Below, piece by piece: positions 3,682 to 17,062 of a DNA stretch of 64,000 nt. The stretch is from Methyloversatilis universalis (GTDB lineage: Bacteria > Pseudomonadota > Gammaproteobacteria > Methylococcales > Methylococcaceae), in contig DYIL01000002.1 of assembly GCA_020723665.1 (NCBI GenBank), positions 40,188-104,187 on the forward strand, written 5' to 3'. The notes beneath the pieces are model-generated. The model did no database searches. It worked only from the letters and a program-made list of their open reading frames with translations, and had not been told where the DNA came from. The number at the start of each line of letters is the position of its first letter. Position 1 is the stretch's first letter. A program made the translations under genes and the position numbers.

Positions 3682-3697
3682 TGGCACGATCTCTGCT
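3682..3697 (+). promoter_or_regulatory. sigma54 (-24/-12) promoter of the narK operon
   Basis: TGGCACGATCTCTGCT versus consensus TGGCACG-N4-TTGCW. GG (3683-84) and GC (3695-96) have the correct spacing. Confidence 0.6.
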
Positions 3698-3713
3698 TAA
3701 TCGGCAGTAATTC

Positions 3714-3756
3714 TCGATACGCCAACGGCGGGGTATCGAAAATCGACAAAGGCGTC
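3714..3756 (+). promoter_or_regulatory. ANTAR-type dual hexaloop hairpins (NasT target) in the narK leader
   Basis: P1 is tCGATACGCC[AACGGC]GGGGTATCGa and P2 is GAC[AAAGGC]GTC. Both loops have A1/G4. The P2 3' arm is the 5' arm of the terminator. Confidence 0.5.
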
Positions 3757-3797
3757 TCGCGGTCATCCTTCTACGGTGACCGCCGGACGCCTTTTTT
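3751..3797 (+). terminator. Leader intrinsic terminator (attenuator) upstream of narK
   Basis: GGCGTCtcGCGGTCAt..cGGTGACCGCcgGACGCC followed by TTTTTT, 45 nt before the narK ATG. Confidence 0.75.
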
Positions 3798-3841
3798 ATT
3801 GGTTCGGATAAACGCGAAATCAACCGAATGGACTTTGAACG

Positions 3842-5116
3842 ATGAACTTCAAAGAATTCAAGCAAGCAGGCCATTGGCCGACTCTGCTGTCCGCATTCCT
3901 CTATTTCGACGCCTCTTTCATGGTCTGGGTGATGCTGGGTCCCTTGTCCCTGTACATCACCAAGGACCTGGGGCTGCCGGTAAGCGAGAAGTTCACCATT
4001 GTGGCCATCCCCATTCTATCCGGCGCCGTATTCCGCGTGGTCCTCGGCTCGATGGCCGACCACCTTGGCCCCAAGCTGACCGGAATCCTGGCCCAGTTGC
4101 TGGTGATTCTCGGGCTGGCCTATGTCTTCGTATTCGGTCTGCACTCCAAGCTGGAAACGGAGCTGCTGGGCCTCCTCTTGGGTATAGCCGGAGCCAGTTT
4201 TGCCGTGGCCCTGCCCCAGGCCAGCCGCTGGTACCCGCCGCGCTATCAGGGTGTGGTGATGGGTATCGCCGGGGCCGGCAACATGGGCGTGGTGCTGGAC
4301 TCGATGATCGTCCCGTGGCTGGCGGAACGCTTCGGCTGGCAGGCGGTGTTCGGTTTCCTGCTCATCCCCCTGGTGCTGGTGCTCGTCATTTACACCGTTC
4401 TGGTCAAGGACGCCCCGGACAAGCGCACGCCAGTCACCCTGGCCAACTATGCCGCAGTCATGAAAGACCCGGACACCTGGTGGTTCATGTTCTTTTATTC
4501 GATCACCTTCGGCGGCTTCGTCGGTCTCGGCAATGCGCTGCCCCTTTACTTCACCAACTGGTATCACGTCTCCGGCATCGCCGCTGGCATGATGGCGGCG
4601 ATCGTCGTATTCGCCGGCTCCATGTTTCGCCCCGTGGGCGGCTACCTGGCCGACCGGCTGGGCGGCATACGCACGCTACAGTTCCTGTTCGTCGCGGTGT
4701 CCTTGAGCTATCTCGCCATCTCTTTTCTGCCGGAAGGCCCGGCGCCGGTCCAGAGCGCGAATGCCAAAGTCGCCGGATGGGGTTTGTTCGAACTGCCTGC
4801 CATCGCCTGGATCGCCGTCGCTATCTTCTTCGCCGGCACCATGGCCTTAGGGATGGGCAATGGATCGGTGTTCCAGCTGGTGCCCCTGCGCTTCCGCAAG
4901 GAGATCGGCGTCATCACCGGGCTGGTCGGCTGCGCCGGCGGCGTGGGCGGCTTCTTCCTGGCCAAGGCCTTGGGGTGGTCCTGGGACATGCAGCACGGCT
5001 TCGCCCTGGGCTTTAGCGTGTTCGCCGGGCTGCCGCTGCTGGGACTCTTCGGTCTCCTTATGGTCAAGAAGCGCTGGCGCACCACTTGGGGCGCGGTATC
5101 CGGCGCGCGGGTCTGA
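3842..5116 (+). CDS. narK: Nitrate/nitrite MFS transporter (NarK/NasA-type)
   Basis: 424 aa, about 12 TM segments. NarK-family features (HWPTLLSAFLYFDASFMVWVMLGPL, GAGNMG, GGVGGFFL). Located at the head of the nas/nir genes. Confidence 0.85.
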   Translation: MNFKEFKQAGHWPTLLSAFLYFDASFMVWVMLGPLSLYITKDLGLPVSEKFTIVAIPILSGAVFRVVLGSMADHLGPKLTGILAQLLVILGLAYVFVFGLHSKLETELLGLLLGIAGASFAVALPQASRWYPPRYQGVVMGIAGAGNMGVVLDSMIVPWLAERFGWQAVFGFLLIPLVLVLVIYTVLVKDAPDKRTPVTLANYAAVMKDPDTWWFMFFYSITFGGFVGLGNALPLYFTNWYHVSGIAAGMMAAIVVFAGSMFRPVGGYLADRLGGIRTLQFLFVAVSLSYLAISFLPEGPAPVQSANAKVAGWGLFELPAIAWIAVAIFFAGTMALGMGNGSVFQLVPLRFRKEIGVITGLVGCAGGVGGFFLAKALGWSWDMQHGFALGFSVFAGLPLLGLFGLLMVKKRWRTTWGAVSGARV

Positions 5117-6873
5117 ACCATGCCGCTGAGTACACGCACCGGAGTACGTCGGTGAACGCAAACGGACAACTCGCCTTGAGCGCCGCCTTCGCGTCGCATC
5201 GGGGACGCCGCGAAGACAACCAGGATTACGCCGGCATCGCCGAGCCATCGGCGCAAGATCTGGCCTGTCGCGGCGTCGTCGCGGCGGTGGCGGACGGCAT
5301 GGGCGGGGCCAAGGGGGGCCGTGTAGCCGCGGAGATGTGCGTGCACTGCTTCATGGAAGCCTATTACAGCCTGGCCGAAACCTTTGCGATGGAGCAGTTG
5401 TTGGACCGCAGCCTGGATGCCGCCAACCGCTGGATACATGCCATGGGGAGGCGCGACCCCAATCTCGCCCATATGGCCACCACCTTCAGCGCTTTGATTC
5501 TTCGCGGCCGCCGCGCCCATCTGGTGCATGTCGGGGACTCCCGCGTCTACCGATTGCGCGGCGAGCGGCTGGAACTGCTGACGACTGATCACACGCTGAA
5601 CGGCCCCGAACTGGGTCACATCCTGTACCGGGCCGTGGGTCTGGAGCCTCTGCTTCGCACCGACTACGCCGTGCACACGCTCGAAGTCCACGACCGCTTC
5701 CTCCTGTGTAGCGACGGTTTGCACGGCGTCCTCAAACAGGCCGAAATCGAGCGCATTCTGCTGGAGCGCGGCGCCACCCAAAGCAGCGCCGATGCTCTGG
5801 TCGACTCGGCGCTACAGCGCGGCGGCAGCGACAATGTCACCGCGCTGGTGGTGGACGTCATCGGTCTGCCCAGAATCGACCGCCAATCCCTGCGGGAAAT
5901 CATCGAATCCCTGCCCATCCTGGAACCACCAGGTCCGGGCGATACCGTGGACGATTTCCAACTGGAAGAACTGGTGTCTTCCGGCCGCTATAGCGTCCTG
6001 TTCCGCGCGGTCGACCTCCAGAGCGGCAACCCCGTAGTCCTCAAATTCCCGCATCCGCGCGTCGCCAGCGAGCGCCTTTACCAGGACGCTTTCATGCGCG
6101 AGGCATGGATCGGCGGACGGGTCAAGAGTCCCTGGGTAGCCGAAATTCTGGAACAGCCGCTCGAGCGGCAAAGCCGTCTCTACTCGGTCATGCCCTATTA
6201 TCGCGGCATCACCCTCGAACAGCACTTGCGCCGGAATGCCCGTATCGGCCTGGAGCCGGGCATCGATCTCGCCCTCAAGCTGTGCAAGGCGGTGCACGCC
6301 CTGCACCGCCAGCAGATCGTGCACCGCGACATCAAGCCGGACAACGTCCTGCTACTCGACGACGGCGGCTTGAAACTGCTGGACCTCGGCATCGCGCGCC
6401 TGCCGGCCTGGGACGAAGACCAGGCCGATCCGATGCCGGGCACCGCCAGCTACATGGCGCCGGAGCTCTTCCATGGCGAACGGGGCAGCGTCGCCAGCGA
6501 CATTTTCGCGCTGGGGGTGACGCTTTATCGGCTGTTCTCCGGCGGCGGCTATCCCTACGGCGAGATCGAGCCGTTCAGCACCCCGAGATTCGGAAAACCC
6601 AAGCCGCTCACCAGTCGCCGCCCGGATTTGCCGGTTTGGCTCGACGCCGCTTTGGCGCGCGCCATCGCGGTCGACCCGGACGAGCGCTATGCCGACGCCA
6701 TAGAACTCGCCTTCGAGCTGGAATCGGGACTGTCGAAAGGGGGTGGCAAGCGCATCTCCGCCCGTCCCCTCCCCCTCTATCAGCGCAATCCCGTGCTGTT
6801 CTGGCAACTGACGGCGTTGCTCCTGTTCGGCCTGCTGATGGTATGCCTGTTTCAGGCATATGGGAGGGTTTAG
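5086..6873 (+). CDS. Fused PP2C-type Ser/Thr phosphatase and Ser/Thr protein kinase with a C-terminal TM anchor
   Basis: The N-terminal half has RREDNQDY, AVADGMGG and LLCSDGLHG..GGSDNVTALVV (PP2C). The C-terminal half has HRDIKPDNVLL, DLGIARL and YMAPE (Hanks kinase). The terminal helix is LFWQLTALLLFGLLMVCLF. A likelier start is GTG 5152, preceded by GGAG. Confidence 0.85.
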   Translation: MGRGIRRAGLNHAAEYTHRSTSVNANGQLALSAAFASHRGRREDNQDYAGIAEPSAQDLACRGVVAAVADGMGGAKGGRVAAEMCVHCFMEAYYSLAETFAMEQLLDRSLDAANRWIHAMGRRDPNLAHMATTFSALILRGRRAHLVHVGDSRVYRLRGERLELLTTDHTLNGPELGHILYRAVGLEPLLRTDYAVHTLEVHDRFLLCSDGLHGVLKQAEIERILLERGATQSSADALVDSALQRGGSDNVTALVVDVIGLPRIDRQSLREIIESLPILEPPGPGDTVDDFQLEELVSSGRYSVLFRAVDLQSGNPVVLKFPHPRVASERLYQDAFMREAWIGGRVKSPWVAEILEQPLERQSRLYSVMPYYRGITLEQHLRRNARIGLEPGIDLALKLCKAVHALHRQQIVHRDIKPDNVLLLDDGGLKLLDLGIARLPAWDEDQADPMPGTASYMAPELFHGERGSVASDIFALGVTLYRLFSGGGYPYGEIEPFSTPRFGKPKPLTSRRPDLPVWLDAALARAIAVDPDERYADAIELAFELESGLSKGGGKRISARPLPLYQRNPVLFWQLTALLLFGLLMVCLFQAYGRV

Positions 6874-6980
6874 GTGTTGTTCGACATCATCGAACTCGAA
6901 CGATGCGGTTCCCTTCGTTCACCGCATCCTACAAAAAATTTGATTCGACGAACGGGATTTATCCCAAGGGTAGGTAAGCC

Positions 6981-9419
6981 ATGAAAAAACAGAAACTCAT
7001 CGTCATCGGCAATGGCATGGCCGGCATCCGAACCGTGGAGGAGTTGCTCAAAATCGCTCCCGACGCCTACGACATCACCGTGTTCGGCGCCGAACCGTAC
7101 TGCAATTACAACCGTATCCTGCTGTCCCCGGTGCTGGCCGGCGAGAAAAAGCTGGACGACATCATTCTCAACGACGATGCCTGGTACGAGTCGAACGGCA
7201 TCGCCCTGCACAAGGGCCGGAAAGTCGTCGCGATCGATCGCCGCCGGCGCCTGGTACGCACCGAGGACGGCCTGGAGGCCAACTACGATCGGCTGCTGCT
7301 CGCCACCGGCTCCACCCCTTTCATGCTCCCGGTACCCGGCAGAGACCTTCCAGGCGTGATCGGATTTCGCGACATCCGCGATGTGGAACTGATGTTGGAA
7401 GCATCGCAAAAATACCACCGCGCGGTCGTCATCGGGGGCGGCCTACTGGGACTGGAAGCGGCCAATGGGCTGAAAAAACGGGGGATGGCGGTCACCGTGG
7501 TGCATCTCCTCGACACGCTGATGGAAAGGCAGCTCGACAAGCCAGCCGCCGACCTCTTGAAACGCGCGCTCGAGGACAGCGGCCTCGAGTTCCGCATGGA
7601 GGCGGAGACCGCGGCCATACTCGGCCGCGATCGTGTCACCGGCGTGCGTTTCAAGGACGGCTCGGAAATTCCGGCCGATCTGGTAGTCATGGCGGTGGGC
7701 ATACGCCCCAACGTCGACCTGGCCAAGAGCGCCGGCATCCATTGCGAGCGCGGCATTTTGGTCAGCGACACGCTACAGACCTTCGATCCCCGCATCTATG
7801 CCGTCGGCGAGTGCGTGCAGCACCGGAAACAGCTTTTCGGGCTGGTGGCCCCGCTGTTCGAACAGGCCAGAGTGTGCGCGAATCACTTGGCGGAATACGG
7901 CATCGCGCGGTATGAAGGCTCGGTAACGTCGACCAAGCTGAAAGTAACCGGCATCGACCTTTTCTCGGCCGGCGAATTTCAAGGCGGCAACGGTTACGAA
8001 GAACTCCTGTTCCAGGACCCTGCTCGCGGCATCTACAAGAAGCTGGTAATCGAATCCAACCGCATCAAGGGCGCCGTGCTTTACGGAGACACCGGCGACG
8101 GTGCCTGGTATTTCCAGATGATGCGCGACGGTACCGATATCTCCGCTTTCCGGGAAAACATCCTGTTCGGACAGGCGCACTTGGGCGACGCCGGCCATGG
8201 CGCGGACAACCGCGCGGCGCTCATGCCGGACACGGCCGAGGTCTGCGGCTGCAACGGCGTCTGCAAGAAGACCATCGTCGACGCCATCGTTCAGAAAAAG
8301 CTGTTCACCCTGGAGGACGTGCGAGCCCATACCAAAGCTTCGGCGTCCTGCGGCTCGTGTACCGGCTTGGTCGAGCAGATTCTGCAAAGCACCCTGGGCA
8401 GCGATTATTCGGTCAGCCCGGCCAAGAAGCCACTGTGCAAGTGCACCGACCACACCCACGAAGAAGTACGGGAGGCCATTCGCTCGCAAAATCTGAAGAC
8501 GATTCCCGAGGTCATGCGGTTCCTCGACTGGAAAACCGCCGACGGCTGCCATTCCTGCCGTCCCGCGCTCAATTACTATCTGCTCTGCCAGTGGCCCAAC
8601 GAATACCGGGACGATCCCCAGTCGCGCTTCATCAACGAGCGGGCTCACGCCAATATCCAGAAGGACGGCACCTATTCCGTGGTGCCGCGCATCTGGGGCG
8701 GCGTCACCAATCCTCGCGAGCTGCGCGCCATCGCCGATGTCGCGGAGAAGTTCGAGGTTCCGATGGTCAAGATCACCGGCGGCCAACGCATCGATCTCCT
8801 GGGCGTTCCGAAAGAACAGCTTCCGGCGATTTGGGCCGAGCTCGGCAAGCACGGCCTCGTGTCCGGCCACGCCTACGGCAAGTCCCTGCGCACCGTCAAA
8901 ACCTGCGTCGGCAAGGAATGGTGCCGTTTCGGTACGCAGGACTCGACCAAAATGGGGATCGCGCTCGAAAAAATGACCTGGGGTTCATGGACGCCGGCCA
9001 AAGTCAAGATGGCGGTATCCGGCTGCCCGCGCAACTGCGCCGAGGCGACGATCAAGGACTTCGGCGTGGTGGCGGTGGATTCCGGCTGGGAACTTCACGT
9101 GGGCGGCAACGGCGGTGTCAAGGTCCGCGCCACCGATTTTCTGTGCAAGGTCGATACGGAAGAGGAAGTGATGGAATACTGCGGCGCCTACCTGCAGCTC
9201 TACCGGGAAGAAGCCCGTTATCTGGAGCGGACCGCTCACTGGATCGAACGCGTCGGTCTCGCTTATATCCAAGAGCGCGTCGTCTCGGACCCGGAAAGCC
9301 GACGTGCCTTGTACGAGCGGTTCCTCGAATCGCAGAGAAGCGCCCAGATCGACCCTTGGTCGGTGCTCGCCCGGGAGTCCGAACGGCGCCACTTCGAGCC
9401 TTTGAGGAAAGTAGGATGA
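6981..9419 (+). CDS. nirB: NAD(P)H-dependent assimilatory nitrite reductase large subunit
   Basis: 812 aa. FAD/NAD fold (KLIVIGNGMAGIRTVEEL), BFD-like Cys cluster (CGCNGVCK...CGSCTG) and a C-terminal sirohaem/4Fe-4S domain (TCVGKEWCRFG..SGCPRNCAEA). Confidence 0.95.
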   Translation: MKKQKLIVIGNGMAGIRTVEELLKIAPDAYDITVFGAEPYCNYNRILLSPVLAGEKKLDDIILNDDAWYESNGIALHKGRKVVAIDRRRRLVRTEDGLEANYDRLLLATGSTPFMLPVPGRDLPGVIGFRDIRDVELMLEASQKYHRAVVIGGGLLGLEAANGLKKRGMAVTVVHLLDTLMERQLDKPAADLLKRALEDSGLEFRMEAETAAILGRDRVTGVRFKDGSEIPADLVVMAVGIRPNVDLAKSAGIHCERGILVSDTLQTFDPRIYAVGECVQHRKQLFGLVAPLFEQARVCANHLAEYGIARYEGSVTSTKLKVTGIDLFSAGEFQGGNGYEELLFQDPARGIYKKLVIESNRIKGAVLYGDTGDGAWYFQMMRDGTDISAFRENILFGQAHLGDAGHGADNRAALMPDTAEVCGCNGVCKKTIVDAIVQKKLFTLEDVRAHTKASASCGSCTGLVEQILQSTLGSDYSVSPAKKPLCKCTDHTHEEVREAIRSQNLKTIPEVMRFLDWKTADGCHSCRPALNYYLLCQWPNEYRDDPQSRFINERAHANIQKDGTYSVVPRIWGGVTNPRELRAIADVAEKFEVPMVKITGGQRIDLLGVPKEQLPAIWAELGKHGLVSGHAYGKSLRTVKTCVGKEWCRFGTQDSTKMGIALEKMTWGSWTPAKVKMAVSGCPRNCAEATIKDFGVVAVDSGWELHVGGNGGVKVRATDFLCKVDTEEEVMEYCGAYLQLYREEARYLERTAHWIERVGLAYIQERVVSDPESRRALYERFLESQRSAQIDPWSVLARESERRHFEPLRKVG

Positions 9420-9745
9420 ATGCCATGACCGACTGGATCGAAATCGGACAGATCGAAGACATCCCCCGGCAAGGCTCGCGCGTCGTGGCGACGCCGAACG
9501 GCAATGTGGCGGTATTCCGTACGGTCGACGATGAAATCTTCGCCGTCCGCGATGTCTGTCCGCACAAAGGAGGCCCCCTCTCCCAGGGCATCGTCTGCGG
9601 CAAGCGAGTGGCCTGTCCGCTGCACAACTGGGTGATCGACCTCGCGTCCGGTGAAGCCGCTCCGCCGGACGAGGGTCGGACGGCGTGCTTTCCGGTGAAG
9701 GCGGTGGAGGGAAGATTGTGGCTGAAACTCGTTGGATCGGAATGA
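9416..9745 (+). CDS. nirD: Nitrite reductase small subunit (Rieske-like)
   Basis: 109 aa: MNAMTDWIEIGQIEDIPRQGSRVV...CPHKGGPLSQG...CPLHNW. ATGA overlap with the nirB stop. Hidden inside a longer wrong-start ORF in the track. Confidence 0.9.
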   Translation: MNAMTDWIEIGQIEDIPRQGSRVVATPNGNVAVFRTVDDEIFAVRDVCPHKGGPLSQGIVCGKRVACPLHNWVIDLASGEAAPPDEGRTACFPVKAVEGRLWLKLVGSE

Positions 9746-9884
9746 GGCTGACTTTCGGAAACGGCCCCACCTTATCCTGGTTTGCCCCTTCCAGCGCCGT
9801 GCTGTCCATCGAGCTTGAAATGAAGATGGGCACGGCCTGTCGGCTTTTGCCTATCCTACGTCTGGATGTTAGAGGAAGAGAAGC

Positions 9885-12611
9885 TTGAGTTCTGCACCAT
9901 TTTCGAATCCGTCCTTGACAAGGGAAAACGGCGCTATCGCCACCACCTGCCCTTACTGCGGCGTCGGCTGCGGCGTCCTTGCCACGGCGCGCGGTCCGGA
10001 CTCAGCCGACATCAAGGGCGATCCGGAGCATCCGTCCAACTTCGGCCGGCTTTGCTCCAAGGGCTCGTCGCTCGGTGAGACGCTGTCGCTGCAAACTCGG
10101 CTGCTTTATCCCGAAATCAACGGCCGACGGGTGAGCTGGGACGAGGCGCTCGCGACCGTCGCCGATACCTTTCGGCGAATCATCGACACTCACGGTCCCG
10201 ACTCGGTGGGGTTTTACGTCTCCGGCCAACTCTTGACCGAAGATTATTACGTCGCGAACAAGCTGATGAAGGGTTACATCGGCTCGGGAAACATCGACAC
10301 CAATTCGCGCCTCTGTATGTCGTCCACGGTCGCGGCCCAGAAACGGGCGTTCGGCGAGGATGTCGTCCCCGGCTGTTACGAGGACCTGGAACTTGCCGAC
10401 CTCGTCGTCCTGGTCGGCTCCAATGCGGCCTGGTGCCATCCCGTTTTGTTTCAGCGCCTGGTCGCGGCCAAACGGCTAAACCCGCGCCAGAAGATCGTCA
10501 ACATCGATCCGCGCCGGACCGCGACCGGTCGGTCCGCCGATCTGCACCTGTCGATCCGGCCGGGTACCGATGCGGTTTTGTTCAACGGGCTGCTGAATTA
10601 TCTTCGTCGGCACGACAGCATCGATTTCGGCTTCTTGGAAAATCGTCTGAGCCACTATGCCGAAGCGTTCGAGACCGCGCGCAAGACGGCGCCGTCTCTG
10701 CCCGCTGTCGCCAGGATCTGTGGTATTCGGGAAGAGGACCTCGCGATTTTCTACCAATGGTTCGCCCGCACCGAGAAAGTCGTTACCGCCTGGTCGCAGG
10801 GAGTCAACCAGTCGTCCAGCGGCACCGACAAGGTCAACAGCATCATCAACGTCCATCTGGCCACCGGGCGGATCGGCAAGCCCGGCACGGGACCTTTGTC
10901 CTTGACCGGTCAGCCGAACGCCATGGGCGGACGCGAGGTCGGCGGGCTCGCCAACCAGCTCGCGGCGCATCTCGACATCGAGAATCCCGAACACCGGAAA
11001 CTAGTACAGACCTTCTGGAATGCGCCGCGCATGGCGGAGAAACCCGGGCTCAAGGCGGTGGAGATGTTTCAGGCAATCGCAGAAGGACGCATCAAGGCTG
11101 TCTGGATCATGGCCACCAATCCGGCGGTCAGCCTGCCGGACGTGAACGCGGTGCGAGCTGCGCTCGGCCGCTGCGAATTCGTCGTGGTGTCCGACTGCGA
11201 GTCGGGCACGGACTTGAGCGCCTACGCCCATGTGAGTCTGCCGGCACTGGCGTGGGGCGAAAAAGACGGCACCGTGACCAACTCCGAACGGCGTATTTCC
11301 CGCCAGCGAGCGTTTCTGCCGCCACCCGGGGAAGCCAAGCCGGATTGGTGGATCATCAGCCGGGTCGCCCAGCGAATGGGTTACGACAACGATTTTAACT
11401 ACCAATCGGCCTGGGAAATTTTTCTAGAGCACGCCCGATTGTCCGGATTTCGGAATAACGGTGAACGCATGTTCGATATTTCAGGCTTGGCAGAACTCGA
11501 CCGAGTCGGCTACGACGCCTTGAGGCCGATCCAATGGCCGGTAAACGAACGCCATCCGAACGGCGCCGCGCGTCTGTTCGGCAACGGCGGATTCTCATTC
11601 TCGGACCGTCGCGCCAGACTGGTGCCGGTCGTCCCCAAAGCCCCAGCCAATCTTCCCGGTCCGGCTTATCCGCTGGTGCTCAACACCGGGCGCATTCGCG
11701 ATCAGTGGCACACCATGACCCGCACCAGCAAAACGGCTCGGCTGACGAAGCATCTTCCCGAGCCGTATGCGGAACTGAATCCGCACGATGCCGCCCGCTA
11801 CGCCGTTCCGGACGGCTCGCTGGTCCGGCTGGAAAGCCGGTTCGGACAAGCCCTGGTCCGGGCGCGCGTCACCGAAGATCAGCAACAGGGGTCGGTATTC
11901 GTTCCGATGCACTGGAGCGGCCCCCATGCCAACAAAGGCTTGATCAACGCCTTGGTCAACCCTGCGGTCGATCCCGTCTCCGGAGAGCCGGAATCGAAGC
12001 ACACGCCCATACGAATCGAACCCTACCGGCCGGCGTGGCACGGCTTCGTACTATCGCGCGAGCCGTTGGACGCTATCGAGGTCGACTACCGGGTTACGAC
12101 GCGCGGGGACGGTCACTGGCTTTACGAACTCGCACATTCCGAACCTCCGCCCGATTGGGCAGCTTGGATCCGCGGATTATGCGCCCAGCCCTCGGGTTCG
12201 AGCGAATCCGCCTCCGCTGAAACGGTGCACGGCAAGGAGGAATGGCTGCAATTCGCCGATCCTCACTCGGGCCGGTACCGCTGTGCGCTTCTCCACGGCG
12301 GACGTTTGCAGTTTTGCGTCTTTATCGACCGCAGCTTCGAACTGCCGCCGCGCAACTGGCTGGCCGGTCTCTTCTCTCTGGATCGACTCCCCGATCGGAC
12401 CCGCATGAGTCTTTTGGCCGGCAAACCGGCTTCCGCGGAGGACGATCAGGGACGTATCGTCTGCTCCTGCTTCAGCGTGGGCATCAACACCCTGAAACGC
12501 GCCATTCGAAAGCAAAATCTAACGACCACCGAACAGATTGGTGCAGCGCTCAAAGCCGGAACCAACTGCGGTTCCTGCATTCCCGAGATCAAGTCCTTGT
12601 TGCAAGGGTAA
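9885..12611 (+). CDS. nasA: Assimilatory nitrate reductase catalytic subunit (molybdopterin, with C-terminal BFD-like 2Fe-2S domain)
   Basis: 908 aa. N-terminal 4Fe-4S motif CPYCGVGCG...C and an MopB body. C-terminus is CSCFSVGINTLKRAI...GTNCGSCIPEI. TTG start preceded by GAGGAAGAG. Confidence 0.9.
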   Translation: MSSAPFSNPSLTRENGAIATTCPYCGVGCGVLATARGPDSADIKGDPEHPSNFGRLCSKGSSLGETLSLQTRLLYPEINGRRVSWDEALATVADTFRRIIDTHGPDSVGFYVSGQLLTEDYYVANKLMKGYIGSGNIDTNSRLCMSSTVAAQKRAFGEDVVPGCYEDLELADLVVLVGSNAAWCHPVLFQRLVAAKRLNPRQKIVNIDPRRTATGRSADLHLSIRPGTDAVLFNGLLNYLRRHDSIDFGFLENRLSHYAEAFETARKTAPSLPAVARICGIREEDLAIFYQWFARTEKVVTAWSQGVNQSSSGTDKVNSIINVHLATGRIGKPGTGPLSLTGQPNAMGGREVGGLANQLAAHLDIENPEHRKLVQTFWNAPRMAEKPGLKAVEMFQAIAEGRIKAVWIMATNPAVSLPDVNAVRAALGRCEFVVVSDCESGTDLSAYAHVSLPALAWGEKDGTVTNSERRISRQRAFLPPPGEAKPDWWIISRVAQRMGYDNDFNYQSAWEIFLEHARLSGFRNNGERMFDISGLAELDRVGYDALRPIQWPVNERHPNGAARLFGNGGFSFSDRRARLVPVVPKAPANLPGPAYPLVLNTGRIRDQWHTMTRTSKTARLTKHLPEPYAELNPHDAARYAVPDGSLVRLESRFGQALVRARVTEDQQQGSVFVPMHWSGPHANKGLINALVNPAVDPVSGEPESKHTPIRIEPYRPAWHGFVLSREPLDAIEVDYRVTTRGDGHWLYELAHSEPPPDWAAWIRGLCAQPSGSSESASAETVHGKEEWLQFADPHSGRYRCALLHGGRLQFCVFIDRSFELPPRNWLAGLFSLDRLPDRTRMSLLAGKPASAEDDQGRIVCSCFSVGINTLKRAIRKQNLTTTEQIGAALKAGTNCGSCIPEIKSLLQG

Positions 12612-12750
12612 AAGAGAAGCGCCGCTTCGCTCGACCACACAGGCGAACCATGCTTCGCGTCATTACATTTCAACGGCTTATGCCCCAACTTGAGGCGTCG
12701 CTTCTCCGAGCCTAGACGCGGATCGGCGTTCTCGTGCCGACAGTTCATAT

Positions 12751-12766
12751 TGGCACAACATATGCC
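12751..12766 (+). promoter_or_regulatory. sigma54 (-24/-12) promoter upstream of nasS-nasT
   Basis: TGGCACAACATATGCC, with GG (12752-53) and GC (12764-65) at consensus spacing. It lies 113 nt upstream of the nasS ATG. Confidence 0.5.
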
Positions 12767-12878
12767 TTAGACAGACTATCGGGACGGGCTATTCACCCCT
12801 TAGCCGCTAACGGAGCCCATCGGCTTTCGATATTTCACATTTTTCCCCGAAAGTTTTGGACAAGGAGACCCCTAACTC

Positions 12879-14204
12879 ATGAACTCGGTTCCCCCATGGC
12901 TCCGACCTGCCGTTCGCGCGGCGGGCGGCGAAGGACTCGAGAAACCCCGGATCGACCTCGGCTTCATTCCGCTGACGGACTGCGCGCCGCTGGTGATCGC
13001 CGAGGAAAAAGGCTTTTTTCGAAAACATGGGCTCGAGGTCAGGCTGTTCCGGGAAGTATCCTGGGCCAACATTCGCGACAAAGTCTTCGCCGGCTTGCTC
13101 GACGGCGGCCATATGCTGGCGCCCATGCCCATCGCCACGACGCTCGGCCTCGGAGAACTGAAGAAACCGACCATCACCGCGCTTTCCCTGGATCTGAACG
13201 GCAACGCCATCACCGTGTCTCAGAATTTATACCGGCGCATGGCCGAACTCGATCCGGAGGCCGCAGCCGAGCGCTCCATGTGCGTTCGCGCACTGAAGAA
13301 GATCATCGAGGCCGATCGAAAGACGGGACGCGAGCCCCTGTGCTTCGCGACGGTTTTCCCGTTTTCCCCGCACAATTACATGCTGCGCTACTGGTTGGCC
13401 GCGGGCGGCATCGACCCGGACCGGGACGTGCGCTTGGTGGTCATTCCGCCGCCCCACATGGTCGACTATTTGAGCGGCGGCGAGATCGACGGTTATTGCG
13501 TCGGCGAGCCCTGGAATGCGCAGGCGGTGGCGAAAGGCGTCGGACGCACGCTGATCACCGACTATGAAATCTGGAACAACAAGCCGGAAAAAGTGCTAGG
13601 CGTGAACCGCGACTGGGCCGAACGGCACCCCAACACTCACCGCGCCTTGCTGATGGCGCTCCTCGAATCGGCGCAATGGATAGACCGGCCCGAAAACCGT
13701 ATCGAAGTGGCCGAAATTCTGGCGCGCGAGGACTATGTCAGCGCGCCGGCGGACGTCGTGAAAATGTCCATGACCGGCTCGTTTCATTACCAAATCGATG
13801 CCGAACCGGCACCGCTCCCCGACTTCAACGTGTTCTTCCGCTACGCGGCGACGTTTCCGTGGCGCTCGCATGCCGTGTGGTTCATCACGCAGATGTACCG
13901 CTGGGGACAGTTGCGCGACCCCATCGAGATTCGCAAGCTCGCGGAAGAGGTCTATCGACCCGATCTTTACCGCGAGGCCGCCCAAGCTCTCGGTCTCCCC
14001 TTCCCCACGGTGGACTACAAGACCGAGGGACAACACGACGAGCCTTGGACGCTCCGGGAAGCCACCGAACCGATAGCGCTGGGCAAGGATCGGTTCCTGG
14101 ACGGCGGCGTGTTCGATCCGCTCCGCCCGGTGGACTATCTAGAACAGTTCGCACTTCACAATCGGCAGGTTTCACTGGACGTATTGGCCAAGGTCAATCC
14201 ATGA
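12879..14204 (+). CDS. nasS: NasS-like nitrate/nitrite sensor (NrtA/SsuA-type binding-protein fold, cytoplasmic)
   Basis: 441 aa with no signal peptide. NrtA-like motifs (IDLGFIPLTDCAPLVIAEEKGFFRKHGL, GGEIDGYCVGEPWN). Stop overlaps the nasT ATG (ATGA). Confidence 0.8.
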   Translation: MNSVPPWLRPAVRAAGGEGLEKPRIDLGFIPLTDCAPLVIAEEKGFFRKHGLEVRLFREVSWANIRDKVFAGLLDGGHMLAPMPIATTLGLGELKKPTITALSLDLNGNAITVSQNLYRRMAELDPEAAAERSMCVRALKKIIEADRKTGREPLCFATVFPFSPHNYMLRYWLAAGGIDPDRDVRLVVIPPPHMVDYLSGGEIDGYCVGEPWNAQAVAKGVGRTLITDYEIWNNKPEKVLGVNRDWAERHPNTHRALLMALLESAQWIDRPENRIEVAEILAREDYVSAPADVVKMSMTGSFHYQIDAEPAPLPDFNVFFRYAATFPWRSHAVWFITQMYRWGQLRDPIEIRKLAEEVYRPDLYREAAQALGLPFPTVDYKTEGQHDEPWTLREATEPIALGKDRFLDGGVFDPLRPVDYLEQFALHNRQVSLDVLAKVNP

Positions 14205-14779
14205 GCCTCAGAATCTTGCTGGTCGATCAGGATGCGGCTCGAAGCGCCATATTGGAGCAGGCCTTGCACGATGCCGGCCATCAGGTCGTCGCCCGGATCA
14301 AGCATGGCCACAACCTCCTTCGAGAACTCAAAGAATGCCAACCAGACATCATCATCATGGACTTGGAAGCCCCCGGCCGGGATACCCTTGAACAAATGCG
14401 GGAGATCAGCCGGGACCAGCCGAGGCCGATCATTCTGTTCTCGAACAAGCGCGATAGCGAGTACATCCGTCAGGCCGTACAAGCCGGCGTGAGCGCCTAT
14501 GTCGTGGACGGCCTCAGCCAGGAACGCGTTATGCCCATCGTCGAGGTGGCCATAGCCCGTTTCCGCGAATTCGAAGCCCTCAAGCGCGAGCTCCAGGAAA
14601 CCAAAACCCAGCTCGCCGATCGGAAAGTGGTCGATAAGGCCAAAGGCATTCTGATGCAGCGAAAAGGCTTGAGTGAAGACGAAGCCTATCAGCTGCTCCG
14701 CAAAACAGCCATGAGCCGCAATATGCGCATCGCGGATGTCGCGAGGACCTTGCTCGCCCTGGAAGGACTGACCGACTGA
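14201..14779 (+). CDS. nasT: ANTAR-domain response-regulator antiterminator NasT
   Basis: 192 aa. REC domain (ILLVDQD...IIIMDL) followed by ANTAR (LADRKVVDKAKGILMQRKGLSEDEAYQLLRKTAMSRNMRIADVA). Confidence 0.9.
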   Translation: MSLRILLVDQDAARSAILEQALHDAGHQVVARIKHGHNLLRELKECQPDIIIMDLEAPGRDTLEQMREISRDQPRPIILFSNKRDSEYIRQAVQAGVSAYVVDGLSQERVMPIVEVAIARFREFEALKRELQETKTQLADRKVVDKAKGILMQRKGLSEDEAYQLLRKTAMSRNMRIADVARTLLALEGLTD

Positions 14780-14917
14780 TAAGGCGGCAGGGTTCGCCCG
14801 GCTTTCGCGCATTTCGCACACTTTTGTCGCATACCGTTCATTGCCTCACCCACCATGACGCTGCTCCGCCGCGCTACCTACCGTGATTTCCGTGCCGTTC
14901 CGACGGTCAGACGAACT

Positions 14918-14933
14918 TGGCACGCTTCCTGTT
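14918..14933 (+). promoter_or_regulatory. sigma54-like promoter upstream of the porin gene (imperfect -12)
   Basis: TGGCACGCTTCCTGTT. The -24 element is perfect, but -12 reads GT instead of GC. Together with the downstream TAATTCTC(C)GATA it is paralogous to the narK promoter and leader. Confidence 0.4.
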
Positions 14934-14953
14934 AATTCTCCGATAACAGCCGT

Positions 14954-14995
14954 TGCGCGCCGACGAGGGTGCGCAGACGACGGACAAAGGCGTCC
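14954..14995 (+). promoter_or_regulatory. ANTAR-type dual hexaloop hairpins in the porin leader
   Basis: P1 is TGCGCGCC[GACGAG]GGTGCGCA and P2 is GGAC[AAAGGC]GTCC. P2 overlaps the 5' arm of the terminator. Confidence 0.5.
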
Positions 14996-15032
14996 TCCCG
15001 CGGGCCACAGGCCCGTGGGCGACGCCTTTTTT
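14989..15032 (+). terminator. Leader intrinsic terminator (attenuator) upstream of the porin gene
   Basis: GGCGTCctCCCGCGGGCCacaGGCCCGTGGGcGACGCC followed by TTTTTT. It has the same GGCGTC/GACGCC-TTTTTTATTG ends as the narK leader terminator. Confidence 0.75.
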
Positions 15033-15068
15033 ATTGCTGATCTGATGACAATGATCTGGGGGTACGTC

Positions 15069-16337
15069 ATGCGGATTACCGGGCAGCCGCGGAAGCGCGG
15101 CAGCTTCTTACGGATTCTCTTACTGGGGCTTGCCGCCGCTCGCCCCGTGTTTGCGCAAGGGCTGACTGAAAGTATCGAGAACGCCTTAAACGTCGGGGGA
15201 GGCAAGTTCAACATCGATCTCCGCTATCGCTTCGAATACGTGGATCAAGCCAATTTGCCCGAAGTCGCGAAGGCCGATACCCTCCGCGCGCGGATCGGCT
15301 ATCTCACGCCGACCTTCCAAGGGTTTCAAGCCTTTGCCGAGTACGAGGGCACCCAGGATATCTTCAGCAACGATTACAACAGCACCTGGAACGACAAGAC
15401 CCGCCATCCCGTCATCTCGGATCCTCAGAAAAACGAAGTTAACCAGCTCTGGATCGCATACAGCGGGGTGCCCGAAACGGTTTTCAAAGTCGGGCGTCAA
15501 CGCATCATCTTCGACAACCACCGTTTCATCGGCAACGTGGTCTGGCGCCAGCTCGAGCAGACTTACGACTCTATCGTCATCACCAACACCAGCCTGCCCG
15601 ACACCACGATCACCGCCGGATATCTCTGGAAAGTCCAGGACGTCACTTCACGCACCATCGGCATGAACTCGCCGGTTTTCAACATCGCCTATACCGGCTT
15701 CCCCTACGGCAAGCTGATCGTCCACGGAGAATGGCTGGACTACGACAATGCACGCGAAAGCTACCCCACTCAAACCTTCAATACACTCAGCAATTCCACC
15801 CAAACCGTAGGCGTTCGCTTCGAGGGCACGACGTCCCTCACCGACAATATCAAAGCGCTGTATGCAGCCGAATATGCCTGGCAAGAGGATTACGCCGACA
15901 ATCCCAAGGACTTCAAGGTTGATTACTGGATGGCCGAAGGCGGGCTGGATTTGTGGGGTTTCGTTTTCAAAGGCTCGTTCGAAGAATTGGGCTCAGACAA
16001 CGGCCAGGGTTTCCGCACCCCGCTCGCGACCCTACACGCCTTCCAGGGCTGGGCCGACAAGTTCCTAGTGACGCCGCCCGACGGCATCCGCGACGTGTAC
16101 GGCACCTTCAAGACCAACCTGTACGGCGTGGACTTGTGGTTCATCTATCACGATTTCCGGGACGACACCGGCAGCATCCGCTATGGCGAGGAATTCGACG
16201 TCCAGGTCGAAAAGAAATTCGGCAAGCACTATGCCCTGCTGTTCAAGTTTGCCGACTACAACTCATCCAATCCCAAGGCTTTCGCCGGCAACGTCGATAC
16301 CCAGAAATGGTGGCTGCAGATGGGAATCAGCTTCTGA
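15069..16337 (+). CDS. Outer-membrane beta-barrel porin, alginate-export (AlgE-like) family
   Basis: Start taken at MRITGQPRKRGSFLRILLLGLAAARPVFAQG (signal peptide). Alternating beta-strand pattern, with LRYRFEYVDQ and VGRQRIIFDNHRFIGNVVWRQ typical of the family. C-terminal ...WWLQMGISF ends in an aromatic residue. Confidence 0.7.
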   Translation: MRITGQPRKRGSFLRILLLGLAAARPVFAQGLTESIENALNVGGGKFNIDLRYRFEYVDQANLPEVAKADTLRARIGYLTPTFQGFQAFAEYEGTQDIFSNDYNSTWNDKTRHPVISDPQKNEVNQLWIAYSGVPETVFKVGRQRIIFDNHRFIGNVVWRQLEQTYDSIVITNTSLPDTTITAGYLWKVQDVTSRTIGMNSPVFNIAYTGFPYGKLIVHGEWLDYDNARESYPTQTFNTLSNSTQTVGVRFEGTTSLTDNIKALYAAEYAWQEDYADNPKDFKVDYWMAEGGLDLWGFVFKGSFEELGSDNGQGFRTPLATLHAFQGWADKFLVTPPDGIRDVYGTFKTNLYGVDLWFIYHDFRDDTGSIRYGEEFDVQVEKKFGKHYALLFKFADYNSSNPKAFAGNVDTQKWWLQMGISF

Positions 16338-16407
16338 AAGATATCGTCGACGACTTGTGGTCGGCCGCCGAGCGCAGGATAGTCCAATGTAGGGCTGGGC
16401 TGGGCCG

Positions 16408-16475
16408 GGATAGGCCTGTCCTGAGGTCCTTCGAAGGGCCTCCGTGAGCCTCGACGAAGGGGGGACAGCCATTCC
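16408..16475. repeat. REP-like element, family 2 (CCTTCGA..CTCAGGACAGGCC type), copy A
   Basis: Its reverse complement ggcCCTTCGAaggaCCTCAGGACAGGCCt matches copies at 26632-26730 and 36848-36890. Lies between convergent genes. Confidence 0.55.
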
Positions 16476-16493
16476 CGACACTGCCCTCGGACC

Positions 16494-16520
16494 AAAAAAT
16501 TCAGCTTCCGTTATCGGGAG
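16494..16520 (-). terminator. Possible intrinsic terminator of the mxa operon
   Basis: On the minus strand, CTCCCGataaCGGAAG (one mismatch) then ctgaaTTTTTT, starting 9 nt after the mxaD stop. Confidence 0.4.
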
Positions 16521-16528
16521 TTAAACCT

Positions 16529-17062
16529 TCAATTCTCGGATTCAACGATGCGTTTCAGATTTTCTAGACCGGTCTTGAAAAACGTCTGCATGGCTTGAAC
16601 GGCCGCCTCGTCGTTCAGCTCGTCCGGCGGGAAGTTACTGGTATCGCCTCGGTATAGCCGGCTTTTCCATTCCACCTTGGTGCCCTGCCCGGCCGGCGTC
16701 AGTTTTAACACCGCTGAATAAGAACTCGCCGGCAGCGCTTTGACGTTGACGTCTTTCAGCCGATAGTCGTACTCGTAGGCTTTTTCGTCGTAAAAATCGA
16801 GTTCCTCCACCAGTTGCTCGCCATTCGGAAAAGTCAGCGTGCGTTTTTCGCCGGGCTGGTTGCCGCCCTGAGCTTCGCTTTTCGCGACGGCCGGATTCCA
16901 TTGGCCTATGGCGCCGAAATCCTTGACCTTGTCCCAGACTTTTTCGATGGGCCGCTCGATCTCGACTGATTCGATGACTTTTTGAGGCGTAGGGCCGTGG
17001 GCCGAAACTCCGGCAGAAAAAGCCAAACCAAGCACCGACAAGACAGGAAGAATCATTTTCAT
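16529..17062 (-). CDS. mxaD: MxaD (periplasmic SRPBCC-fold protein of the methanol dehydrogenase system)
   Basis: 177 aa from MKMILPVLSVLGLAFSAGVSAHG (signal peptide), with an SRPBCC-like body. Last gene of the mxa operon. Confidence 0.75.
   Translation of the reverse strand: MKMILPVLSVLGLAFSAGVSAHGPTPQKVIESVEIERPIEKVWDKVKDFGAIGQWNPAVAKSEAQGGNQPGEKRTLTFPNGEQLVEELDFYDEKAYEYDYRLKDVNVKALPASSYSAVLKLTPAGQGTKVEWKSRLYRGDTSNFPPDELNDEAAVQAMQTFFKTGLENLKRIVESEN

Follow-up and report, generated by a model that had tools for sequence, protein, structure and literature searches.

A NasT-type antitermination leader in front of an outer-membrane barrel gene: a candidate nitrate/nitrite porin in the nitrate assimilation cluster of a Methylococcaceae genome

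In the NasS-NasT system of Paracoccus, the antiterminator NasT is released when its partner NasS binds nitrate or nitrite (PMC3795266). Proteins with an ANTAR domain act as dimers, which bind tandem hairpins with loops of six nucleotides (hexaloops) and so block the formation of a terminator; the loops that they recognise carry A at position 1 and G at position 4 (PMC3369931). In the leaders of Paracoccus nasA and Klebsiella nasF, and in those of Azotobacter and Pseudomonas, the second of two tandem hexaloops overlaps an intrinsic terminator, and the systems combine an ANTAR protein with a nitrate/nitrite sensor and a nitrogen-controlled promoter (PMC3369931, PMC3795266). We have analysed a stretch of 64,000 nucleotides from a Methylococcaceae genome (assembly GCA_020723665.1, contig DYIL01000002.1, positions 40,188 to 104,187), hereafter called the window, in which the same parts occur in the same arrangement just after nasT, in front of a gene for an outer-membrane beta-barrel, hereafter called the porin. 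The locus differs from the described systems in that the controlled gene encodes an outer-membrane barrel, and not a cytoplasmic-membrane transporter or a reductase, and in two details: the loop of its first hairpin starts with G instead of A, and its promoter reads GT at -12.

Models of nitrate uptake by Gram-negative bacteria start at the inner membrane, with NrtABC and NarK, and take it as given that nitrate gets through the outer one. As judged from its leader, control of the porin by NasT is well supported, and as judged from its gene context, the porin probably provides a dedicated path for nitrate or nitrite through the outer membrane. The complete account, in which the porin is a one-gene unit with two layers of control and a product that would pass nitrate or nitrite across the outer membrane, we consider rather probable. 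The parts of this unit are listed below, together with the leader of the narK operon, which serves as the reference copy of the module.

3682-3801, + strand: leader of the narK operon, reference copy (89 bits with the covariance model R1, described below)
14918-14933, + strand: sigma54-type -24/-12 promoter, TGGCACG-N4-CTGTT, with GT instead of the usual GC at -12
14951-14979, + strand: hairpin P1 with hexaloop GACGAG at 14962-14967 (from folding)
14982-14995, + strand: hairpin P2, GGAC-AAAGGC-GUCC, with its loop at 14986-14991 (from folding and comparison of species)
14986-15032, + strand: intrinsic terminator with outer stem AAAGGCGUC/GACGCCUUU, a variable inner stem and a run of six U (-36.2 kcal/mol, z -5.9)
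15058-15062, + strand: ribosome-binding site GGGGG, 6 nucleotides 5' of the porin ATG (read from the sequence; kept in four Methylocaldum species)
15069-16337, + strand: porin gene, 422 amino acids, with signal peptide, 18-stranded beta-barrel and C-terminal Phe (open reading frame, Pfam, AlphaFold2)

In the segment from 14918 to 15036 a sigma54-type promoter is followed by two hexaloop hairpins, P1 and P2, and by an intrinsic terminator that shares nucleotides with P2; the narK leader at 3682-3801 is built in the same way. An earlier note on this DNA had claimed such a repetition of the narK leader after nasT, and every element that it named was found in its place. The note had also called the module duplicated, a word that applies here in the sense of common membership of one leader family, and not necessarily of a recent copying. 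The promoter pattern TGGCACG-N4-CTG(C/T)T occurs in the window at 3682 and 14918 only, as the note had implied, which taken alone is weak evidence, since two or more matches appear in 11 of 100 shuffled sequences. When the porin promoter is compared with the rule TGGCAC-N5-TTGCW, the GG is present and the spacing of 10 nucleotides is correct, and the -12 element reads GT, the degeneracy that the note had already pointed out. Four Methylocaldum species share the promoter block TGGCACGYTTYCTGTT, and a simple promoter scan of 14700-16600 found no sigma70-like promoter.

The tops of both P1 hairpins have the form GCC[hexaloop]GG, with the loops AACGGC in the narK leader and GACGAG in the porin leader, where the latter has the G at position 4 and a G at position 1. 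The core of P2, GAC-AAAGGC-GUC, is the same in the porin and narK leaders and in most nas leaders of the Methylococcales, and its loop AAAGGC satisfies the ANTAR rule at both positions. P1 and P2 are separated by 2-6 nucleotides, depending on how far P1 is drawn. The loop and the 3' arm of P2 double as the 5' arm of the terminator: nucleotides 14986-14994 pair with 15021-15029 in the terminator and sit within P2 in the alternative fold, so that P2 and the terminator are mutually exclusive, as in the classical arrangement, and the leader RNA without the 3' arm of the terminator folds into P1 and P2. The 3' end of the terminator, GACGCCTTTTTTATTG, is present in exactly two copies in the window, at 3786 and 15021 (0 of 100 shuffles), which bears out the claim of terminators with identical ends. 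The stem of the leader terminator is bulged, and it was overlooked by a simple terminator scan. The string TAATTCTC(C)GATA, which had been named as a further part of the module, is indeed common to the narK and porin leaders of this genome, but its position relative to P1 differs between them, the porin leaders of three other species do not conserve it, and it was rejected as a functional element.

The relation between the leaders was quantified with the covariance model R1, which was built from 13 narK, nrtA and nasT leaders of nine Methylococcales genomes with all porin leaders excluded, and whose structure consists of P1 and the terminator stem. The porin leader, held out in this way, scores 51.7 bits with an expectation value (E) of 4e-11; the porin leaders of three other Methylocaldum species score 50-53 bits, and a porin leader from another family of Methylococcales scores 46 bits. 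When R1 is run over the whole genome of 3.9 Mb, only four matches are found, all with E of 1.4e-7 or better, while the next is not better than 0.06. The genes behind the four are nrtA-nrtB-nrtC, the narK operon, the porin and a gene for a methyl-accepting chemotaxis protein, and in all four leaders promoter, P1, P2 and terminator are laid out alike. By sequence and predicted fold, then, the porin leader truly belongs to one family with the narK and nrtA leaders. A scan of the whole window with Rfam at gathering thresholds gave no match, there being no curated family for this leader.

Conservation of pairing in P1 was evaluated in an alignment of 15 leaders, 11 of which stand directly before a porin gene. 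Compensatory double changes are seen at six of the eight P1 pairs. Paired cells make up 91% in P1 versus 37-60% in slid controls, where the fitting of the alignment to the model favours pairing and the slid controls carry the same bias, and the observed covariation score was reached by none of 500 shuffles. In an alignment of the nasT-porin intergenic region from four Methylocaldum species, conserved islands stand out from diverged sequence: a block of 39 nucleotides after nasT, the -24/-12 block, the top of P1, P2 with the ends of the terminator, and the ribosome-binding site. The outer stem of the terminator is conserved, and its inner stem differs between the species in sequence with pairing kept. 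The similarity of leaders in related genomes, on which the earlier note had made its proposal depend, is in this way present throughout the four species, with P1 compensated. In one of them (L004, genome G003) about 130 nucleotides are inserted between the upstream block and the porin promoter, and the promoter-leader unit is intact.

The genes narK, a fusion of PP2C with a Ser/Thr kinase, nirB, nirD, nasA, nasS and nasT form a nitrate assimilation cluster at 3842-14779 of the window, and the last two of them, together with the conserved block that follows, are the features that adjoin the porin unit.

12879-14204, + strand: nasS, NrtA-like nitrate/nitrite sensor and partner of NasT (Pfam NMT1_2, 313.9 bits)
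14201-14779, + strand: nasT, response-regulator receiver and ANTAR RNA-binding antiterminator (Pfam Response_reg and ANTAR, 76 bits)
14794-14832, + strand: conserved block of 39 nucleotides just 3' of the nasT stop, with two direct repeats, TTTCGCGCA and TTTTGTCGCA, about 20 nucleotides apart (four-species alignment)

The stop codon of nasS overlaps the start codon of nasT (ATGA). Since the assembly of 3.9 Mb, which is 94% complete, has a single ANTAR match, in nasT, no candidate other than NasT is at hand for reading these leader RNAs. Together with the membership of the leader family and the covariation of P1, this favours the control of the porin by NasT that the earlier note had proposed. 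The nasT stop at 14779 is followed by an intergenic region of 289 nucleotides and then by the porin reading frame; the gene 3' of the porin belongs to the mxa operon and is convergent, and the porin is therefore monocistronic. The 39-nucleotide block, which is nearly invariant in the four Methylocaldum species while its flanks have diverged, may be an enhancer site for the sigma54-type promoter that lies about 90-125 nucleotides downstream. The block is unlike the NtrC half-sites reported upstream of narK.

From these elements the following chain of events can be proposed. Transcription would begin at the sigma54-type promoter under nitrogen limitation, with the help of an enhancer-binding protein, and by default the leader would fold into its strong terminator, so that transcription halts at 15032, before the gene. 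When nitrate or nitrite is present, NasS would free NasT, as it does in Paracoccus, and the ANTAR domain of NasT would bind the tandem hexaloop hairpins P1 and P2. With P2 held closed, the terminator would lack a free 5' arm, and RNA polymerase would read into the porin gene. The product would be a monomeric-type, 18-stranded outer-membrane barrel with conserved arginines facing the lumen from strands 1, 2 and 5 and from loop 3, which would pass nitrate and/or nitrite on to periplasmic uptake by NrtA or NarK and would matter most when external nitrate is low.

The predicted protein has a signal peptide that ends in AFA|QG, an even number of strands and a C-terminal aromatic residue (the sequence ends in ...GISF), and as modelled it is by these marks an outer-membrane beta-barrel channel. 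AlphaFold2, supplied with an alignment of 30 sequences, gave an 18-stranded barrel with a predicted local distance difference test (pLDDT) of 84.7 and a predicted template-modelling score (pTM) of 0.80. The window belongs to a Methylocaldum genome, and its porin shows 99% identity with a protein that NCBI lists under M. szegediense; the database name of these porins is "alginate export family protein"; no NCBIfam model matches the porin. The Pfam family Alginate_exp (PF13372) matches it with 34.3 bits at a cut-off of 25.2, over residues 47-272 only, which are aligned with positions 5-224 of the 395 positions of the profile, i.e., its N-terminal half. In a Foldseek search of the model the top matches are OprD/Occ channels, with template-modelling (TM) scores of 0.64-0.67, and AlgE follows with 0.58-0.61, with E about 1e-13 for both; OpdQ (OccK6, 3t24) has the highest TM score among the matches listed. 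When a profile of the porin family was compared with the sequences of solved structures, none was found at E up to 10, the AlgE chains included. The earlier description of the porin as an AlgE-like barrel of 422 amino acids is upheld as to fold class and Pfam match, but AlgE is not detected by the family profile and OprD/Occ channels fit at least as well. With the latter, which are also 18-stranded, the porin has no detectable sequence relationship. A metatranscriptome contig of 281 nucleotides from a rhizosphere is 100% identical to 15368-15648 of the porin reading frame, and places this strain, or a nearly identical one, in the sample, while transcription is not proven by it.

Nine basic residues are invariant or nearly so in the family (R52, R54, R73, R75, K140, R143, R145, R152 and R160), and they are placed on strands 1, 2 and 5 and on loop 3. 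Polar and hydrophobic residues alternate in strands 1 and 2, and R52, R54, R73 and R75 should therefore face the lumen, as read from the sequence. The cluster recalls the ladders of basic residues in Occ channels and the pores lined with arginine in AlgE and OprP. OprP and OprO of Pseudomonas aeruginosa are porins specific for phosphate and polyphosphate and are induced by phosphate starvation; OprP is a trimeric, 16-stranded porin from another family than the porin of the window, and its selectivity has been measured. The likeness to OprP lies in an inducible channel for an anionic nutrient, co-regulated with uptake by a binding protein and an ATP-binding cassette (ABC) transporter, and in an arginine-rich lumen, which in the present case is predicted from sequence.

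Where the relatives of the porin are found is informative about what it may carry. Porin relatives are present in 20 of 41 Methylococcales genomes, and their 20 loci were read with flanks of 9 kb. In 13 of them nas or nrt genes adjoin the porin, and in four more nar clusters contain it or stand beside it. The arrangements are nasA-porin, leader-nasT-porin and, chiefly, leader-nrtA-nrtB-nrtC(D)-porin-nirA-nasA, a NasT-controlled operon of which the porin is an inner gene in most relatives. Consider, as an example, Methylomicrobium sp. wino1, where the order leader-nrtA-nrtB-nrtCD-porin-nirA-nasA is tightly packed, with gaps of 21 and 11 nucleotides on the two sides of a porin gene for about 423 amino acids. 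In most relatives the porin follows the gene for the ATPase, unlike in the present genome, whose nrtABC operon is without it. From this comparison it appears that the Methylocaldum porin has moved behind nasST and that the same control was kept by means of a promoter-leader unit of its own. In this genome the nrtA-nrtB-nrtC operon, which lies upstream of the window (C63:25806-28884), has its own leader, lacks a porin and stops before a convergent gene for a PAS-GGDEF-EAL protein.

A scan of public genomes, with one genome per species, gave at least 584 relatives, of which the best 80 were used. Neighbours of nas or nrt type, or NarK-like, are found in 58 of these 80 loci, which, together with the 13 Methylococcales loci, answers positively the earlier question of whether such porins accompany nasST elsewhere. 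An R1 leader lies on the porin strand within 5.5 kb upstream in about 39 of the 80, and in six it lies directly 5' of the porin: in Halopseudomonas oceani, a Pseudomonas metagenome-assembled genome (MAG), Nevskia, Chromatiaceae, a gammaproteobacterial MAG and Verrucomicrobiales. Five of these six leader-porin units have a canonical GG-N10-GC promoter at the same distance, and none is evident in the gammaproteobacterial MAG. Among 101 porin copies, 70 are linked to nitrate genes (58 to nas, 7 to nar and 5 to both), one is linked to amt and 30 to neither; since related loci are not independent, these linkage counts are descriptive and no statistical test is attached to them. In a tree of sampled sequences (FastTree) nitrate linkage is present on both sides of the deepest split, and the nar-linked copies are scattered among the nas-linked ones.

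The nar-type loci (L038:54-10196, L043:10-7295, L037:5456-10187) belong to other Methylococcales families, where the porin comes last, after narK-narGHJ(I), after narGHJ and a PpiC-type isomerase, or after two narK genes. One Methylococcales MAG carries two tandem porin paralogues (L063:6835, L063:10058) with an nrtA-like gene between them, directly after narGHJ.

The observations can be read in other ways, and the one that deserves most attention concerns selectivity. The barrel could be a general channel for small solutes, induced when nitrogen is scarce and wired into the nitrogen regulon of each genome. Ammonium, nitrate, nitrite and perhaps further small nitrogen compounds would all go through it, and nitrate control would tell nothing about its selectivity. 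This would agree with the fact that the leaders all stand behind sigma54-type promoters, which are typical of general nitrogen control, and with genome G019 of the same family, where a paralogue heads the order porin-amtB-glnK (L032:7348-10314, - strand). This copy is 60-62% identical to the porin of the window and is in the tree the sister, and closest paralogue, of the nas-linked copy of G019, which suggests that the porin family has there been recruited to ammonium uptake. A porin that speeds ammonium uptake is furthermore described for a methanotroph: in Methylotuvimicrobium buryatense 5GB1C, ammonium represses PorA (EQU24_19165), which is expressed on nitrate, is reported to have 402 amino acids and 16 strands, and affects the uptake of ammonium and not that of nitrate (bioRxiv 10.1101/2025.01.28.635327). 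By reported size and number of strands, PorA and the porin of the window are probably different proteins. Against a general channel stand the count of amt-linked copies, which is one of 101 versus 70 that are nitrate-linked, and the sampled neighbourhoods, in which no urea, amino-acid or amt genes recur. Copies that end narGHJI clusters or stand beside narK, moreover, belong to respiration and not to the scavenging of nitrogen; the linkage to narGHJI lies outside control by nitrogen limitation and points to nitrate or nitrite itself as the common factor. We regard a general channel as unlikely, though by no means negligible. The "porin" RS14350 of Methylomonas sp. DH-1, a member of the NtrC regulon encoded upstream of glnA (PMC12799797), was considered and set aside for want of a tie to this family.

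Two further alternatives concern the leader and the barrel separately. The hairpins and the terminator might do no more than stop the transcription of nasST, or be the remains of a decayed leader, with the porin transcribed independently of nitrate from another promoter. The terminator does lie about 250 nucleotides past the nasT stop with no other terminator found between them, and a non-canonical -12 element and a P1 loop that starts with G are what a decayed leader could show. Yet a plain terminator would keep neither a compensated P1 nor an exact P2 hexaloop in four species, and it would not reach 51.7 bits with a model of working leaders; conservation extends to the -24/-12 block, no sigma70-like promoter is found between the terminator and the ATG, and leader-porin units with canonical promoters recur in unrelated taxa, all of which makes this alternative very improbable. 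That the porin exports alginate or another acidic polysaccharide is hardly credible at all. The Pfam match is above its cut-off and AlgE, the founder of PF13372, is among the structural matches; AlgE is likewise an 18-stranded barrel and has an electropositive pore for an anionic substrate. But the Pfam match covers half of the profile, the family profile recovers no AlgE chain, and AlgE is a poorer structural match than the Occ/OprD channels. The partners of AlgE in its operon for polysaccharide secretion are AlgK and AlgX, and neither is found beside the porin, whose neighbours are nasT and the mxa-operon gene; in about 100 loci no alginate genes adjoin the porin, and the genes that do are either nitrate genes or unrelated ones. 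A search for ALGX in the genome gave no match, but the controls were equally silent, which makes this result uninformative, and a match to alginate lyase was below its cut-off.

Several observations weigh against a dedicated nitrate/nitrite porin under NasT control. Twenty-one of the 41 Methylococcales genomes are without a porin match and 13 of these 21 still carry nas leaders, so that many relatives can do without the porin in nitrate assimilation. The 30 of 101 copies that have no nitrate neighbour include a clade of Desulfobulbales in which none has one; several of the 30 are on short contigs, and the ten that have long flanks show mutually unrelated upstream genes. From the amtB-glnK paralogue it may be argued that the family can also serve ammonium uptake, or that its pores are not strictly selective, and a knockout of PorA grew normally on millimolar nitrate (bioRxiv 10.1101/2025.01.28.635327). 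Conserved acidic residues in the porin number 21 versus 17 basic ones, and anion selectivity is therefore not readable from composition. The GT at -12 is present in all four Methylocaldum species, where the promoter is hence consistently non-canonical. The G at the start of the P1 loop, also found in all four Methylocaldum porin leaders, departs from the A that is expected from EutV and NasR (PMC3369931); G-first P1 loops are found as well in narK, nasT and nrtA leaders of other genera. Public sequencing runs that contain parts of the stretch do so as fragmentary metagenome or metatranscriptome contigs, which are silent on regulation.

A dedicated porin for nitrate or nitrite, controlled by a NasT-dependent leader, would combine parts of known kinds, as both the RNA switch and the inducible nutrient-specific porin, exemplified by OprP, have been described. 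For a nitrate-regulated porin there is one precedent, namely OpdQ, the transcription of which is raised by nitrate via NarXL (PMC4694141). OpdQ is unlike the present porin in that its gene lies outside a nitrate gene cluster and responds to a DNA-binding regulator, and it is not known to carry nitrate. No nitrate/nitrite porin, and no porin-nitrate operon under NasT antitermination, was found in the full-text literature, the coverage of which leaves out most subscription journals, so that novelty is unproven.

That nitrate transporters and reductases are in many lineages transcribed together with such a channel suggests that permeation of the outer membrane limits the acquisition of nitrate at the micromolar levels of the environment. 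In the present genome the porin has kept a nitrate-specific RNA switch after its apparent departure from the operon, and the cells appear to pay for the pore only when nitrate is there. If the proposal is true, the porin is for nitrate what OprP is for phosphate. Many entries named "alginate export family protein" would then receive a function, metagenomes would gain a new marker of nitrate use, and the cultivation of methanotrophs on nitrate would gain a target for engineering. More tentatively, and somewhat short of what we would call probable, these barrels could be widespread and hitherto unrecognised nitrate/nitrite-selective channels, a missing outer-membrane component of the assimilatory (nrt/nas) and respiratory (nar) nitrate pathways in many Proteobacteria and Verrucomicrobia; the entry of nitrate into Gram-negative cells would in that case be a regulated, protein-specific step and more than passive leakage through general porins.

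The fourth NasT-type leader of the genome (contig C30:7350-7449, - strand, outside the window; 43.7 bits with R1) precedes the gene for the methyl-accepting chemotaxis protein, which has a HAMP domain, a Pfam MCPsignal domain (148 bits) and a periplasmic domain of about 300 amino acids without Pfam match. The nitrate/nitrite-sensing NIT domain was considered for this protein and rejected, as Pfam shows HAMP and MCPsignal only. Judged from its leader, it could be a nitrate-induced chemoreceptor, and the promoter of this leader, like that of the porin, reads GT at -12.

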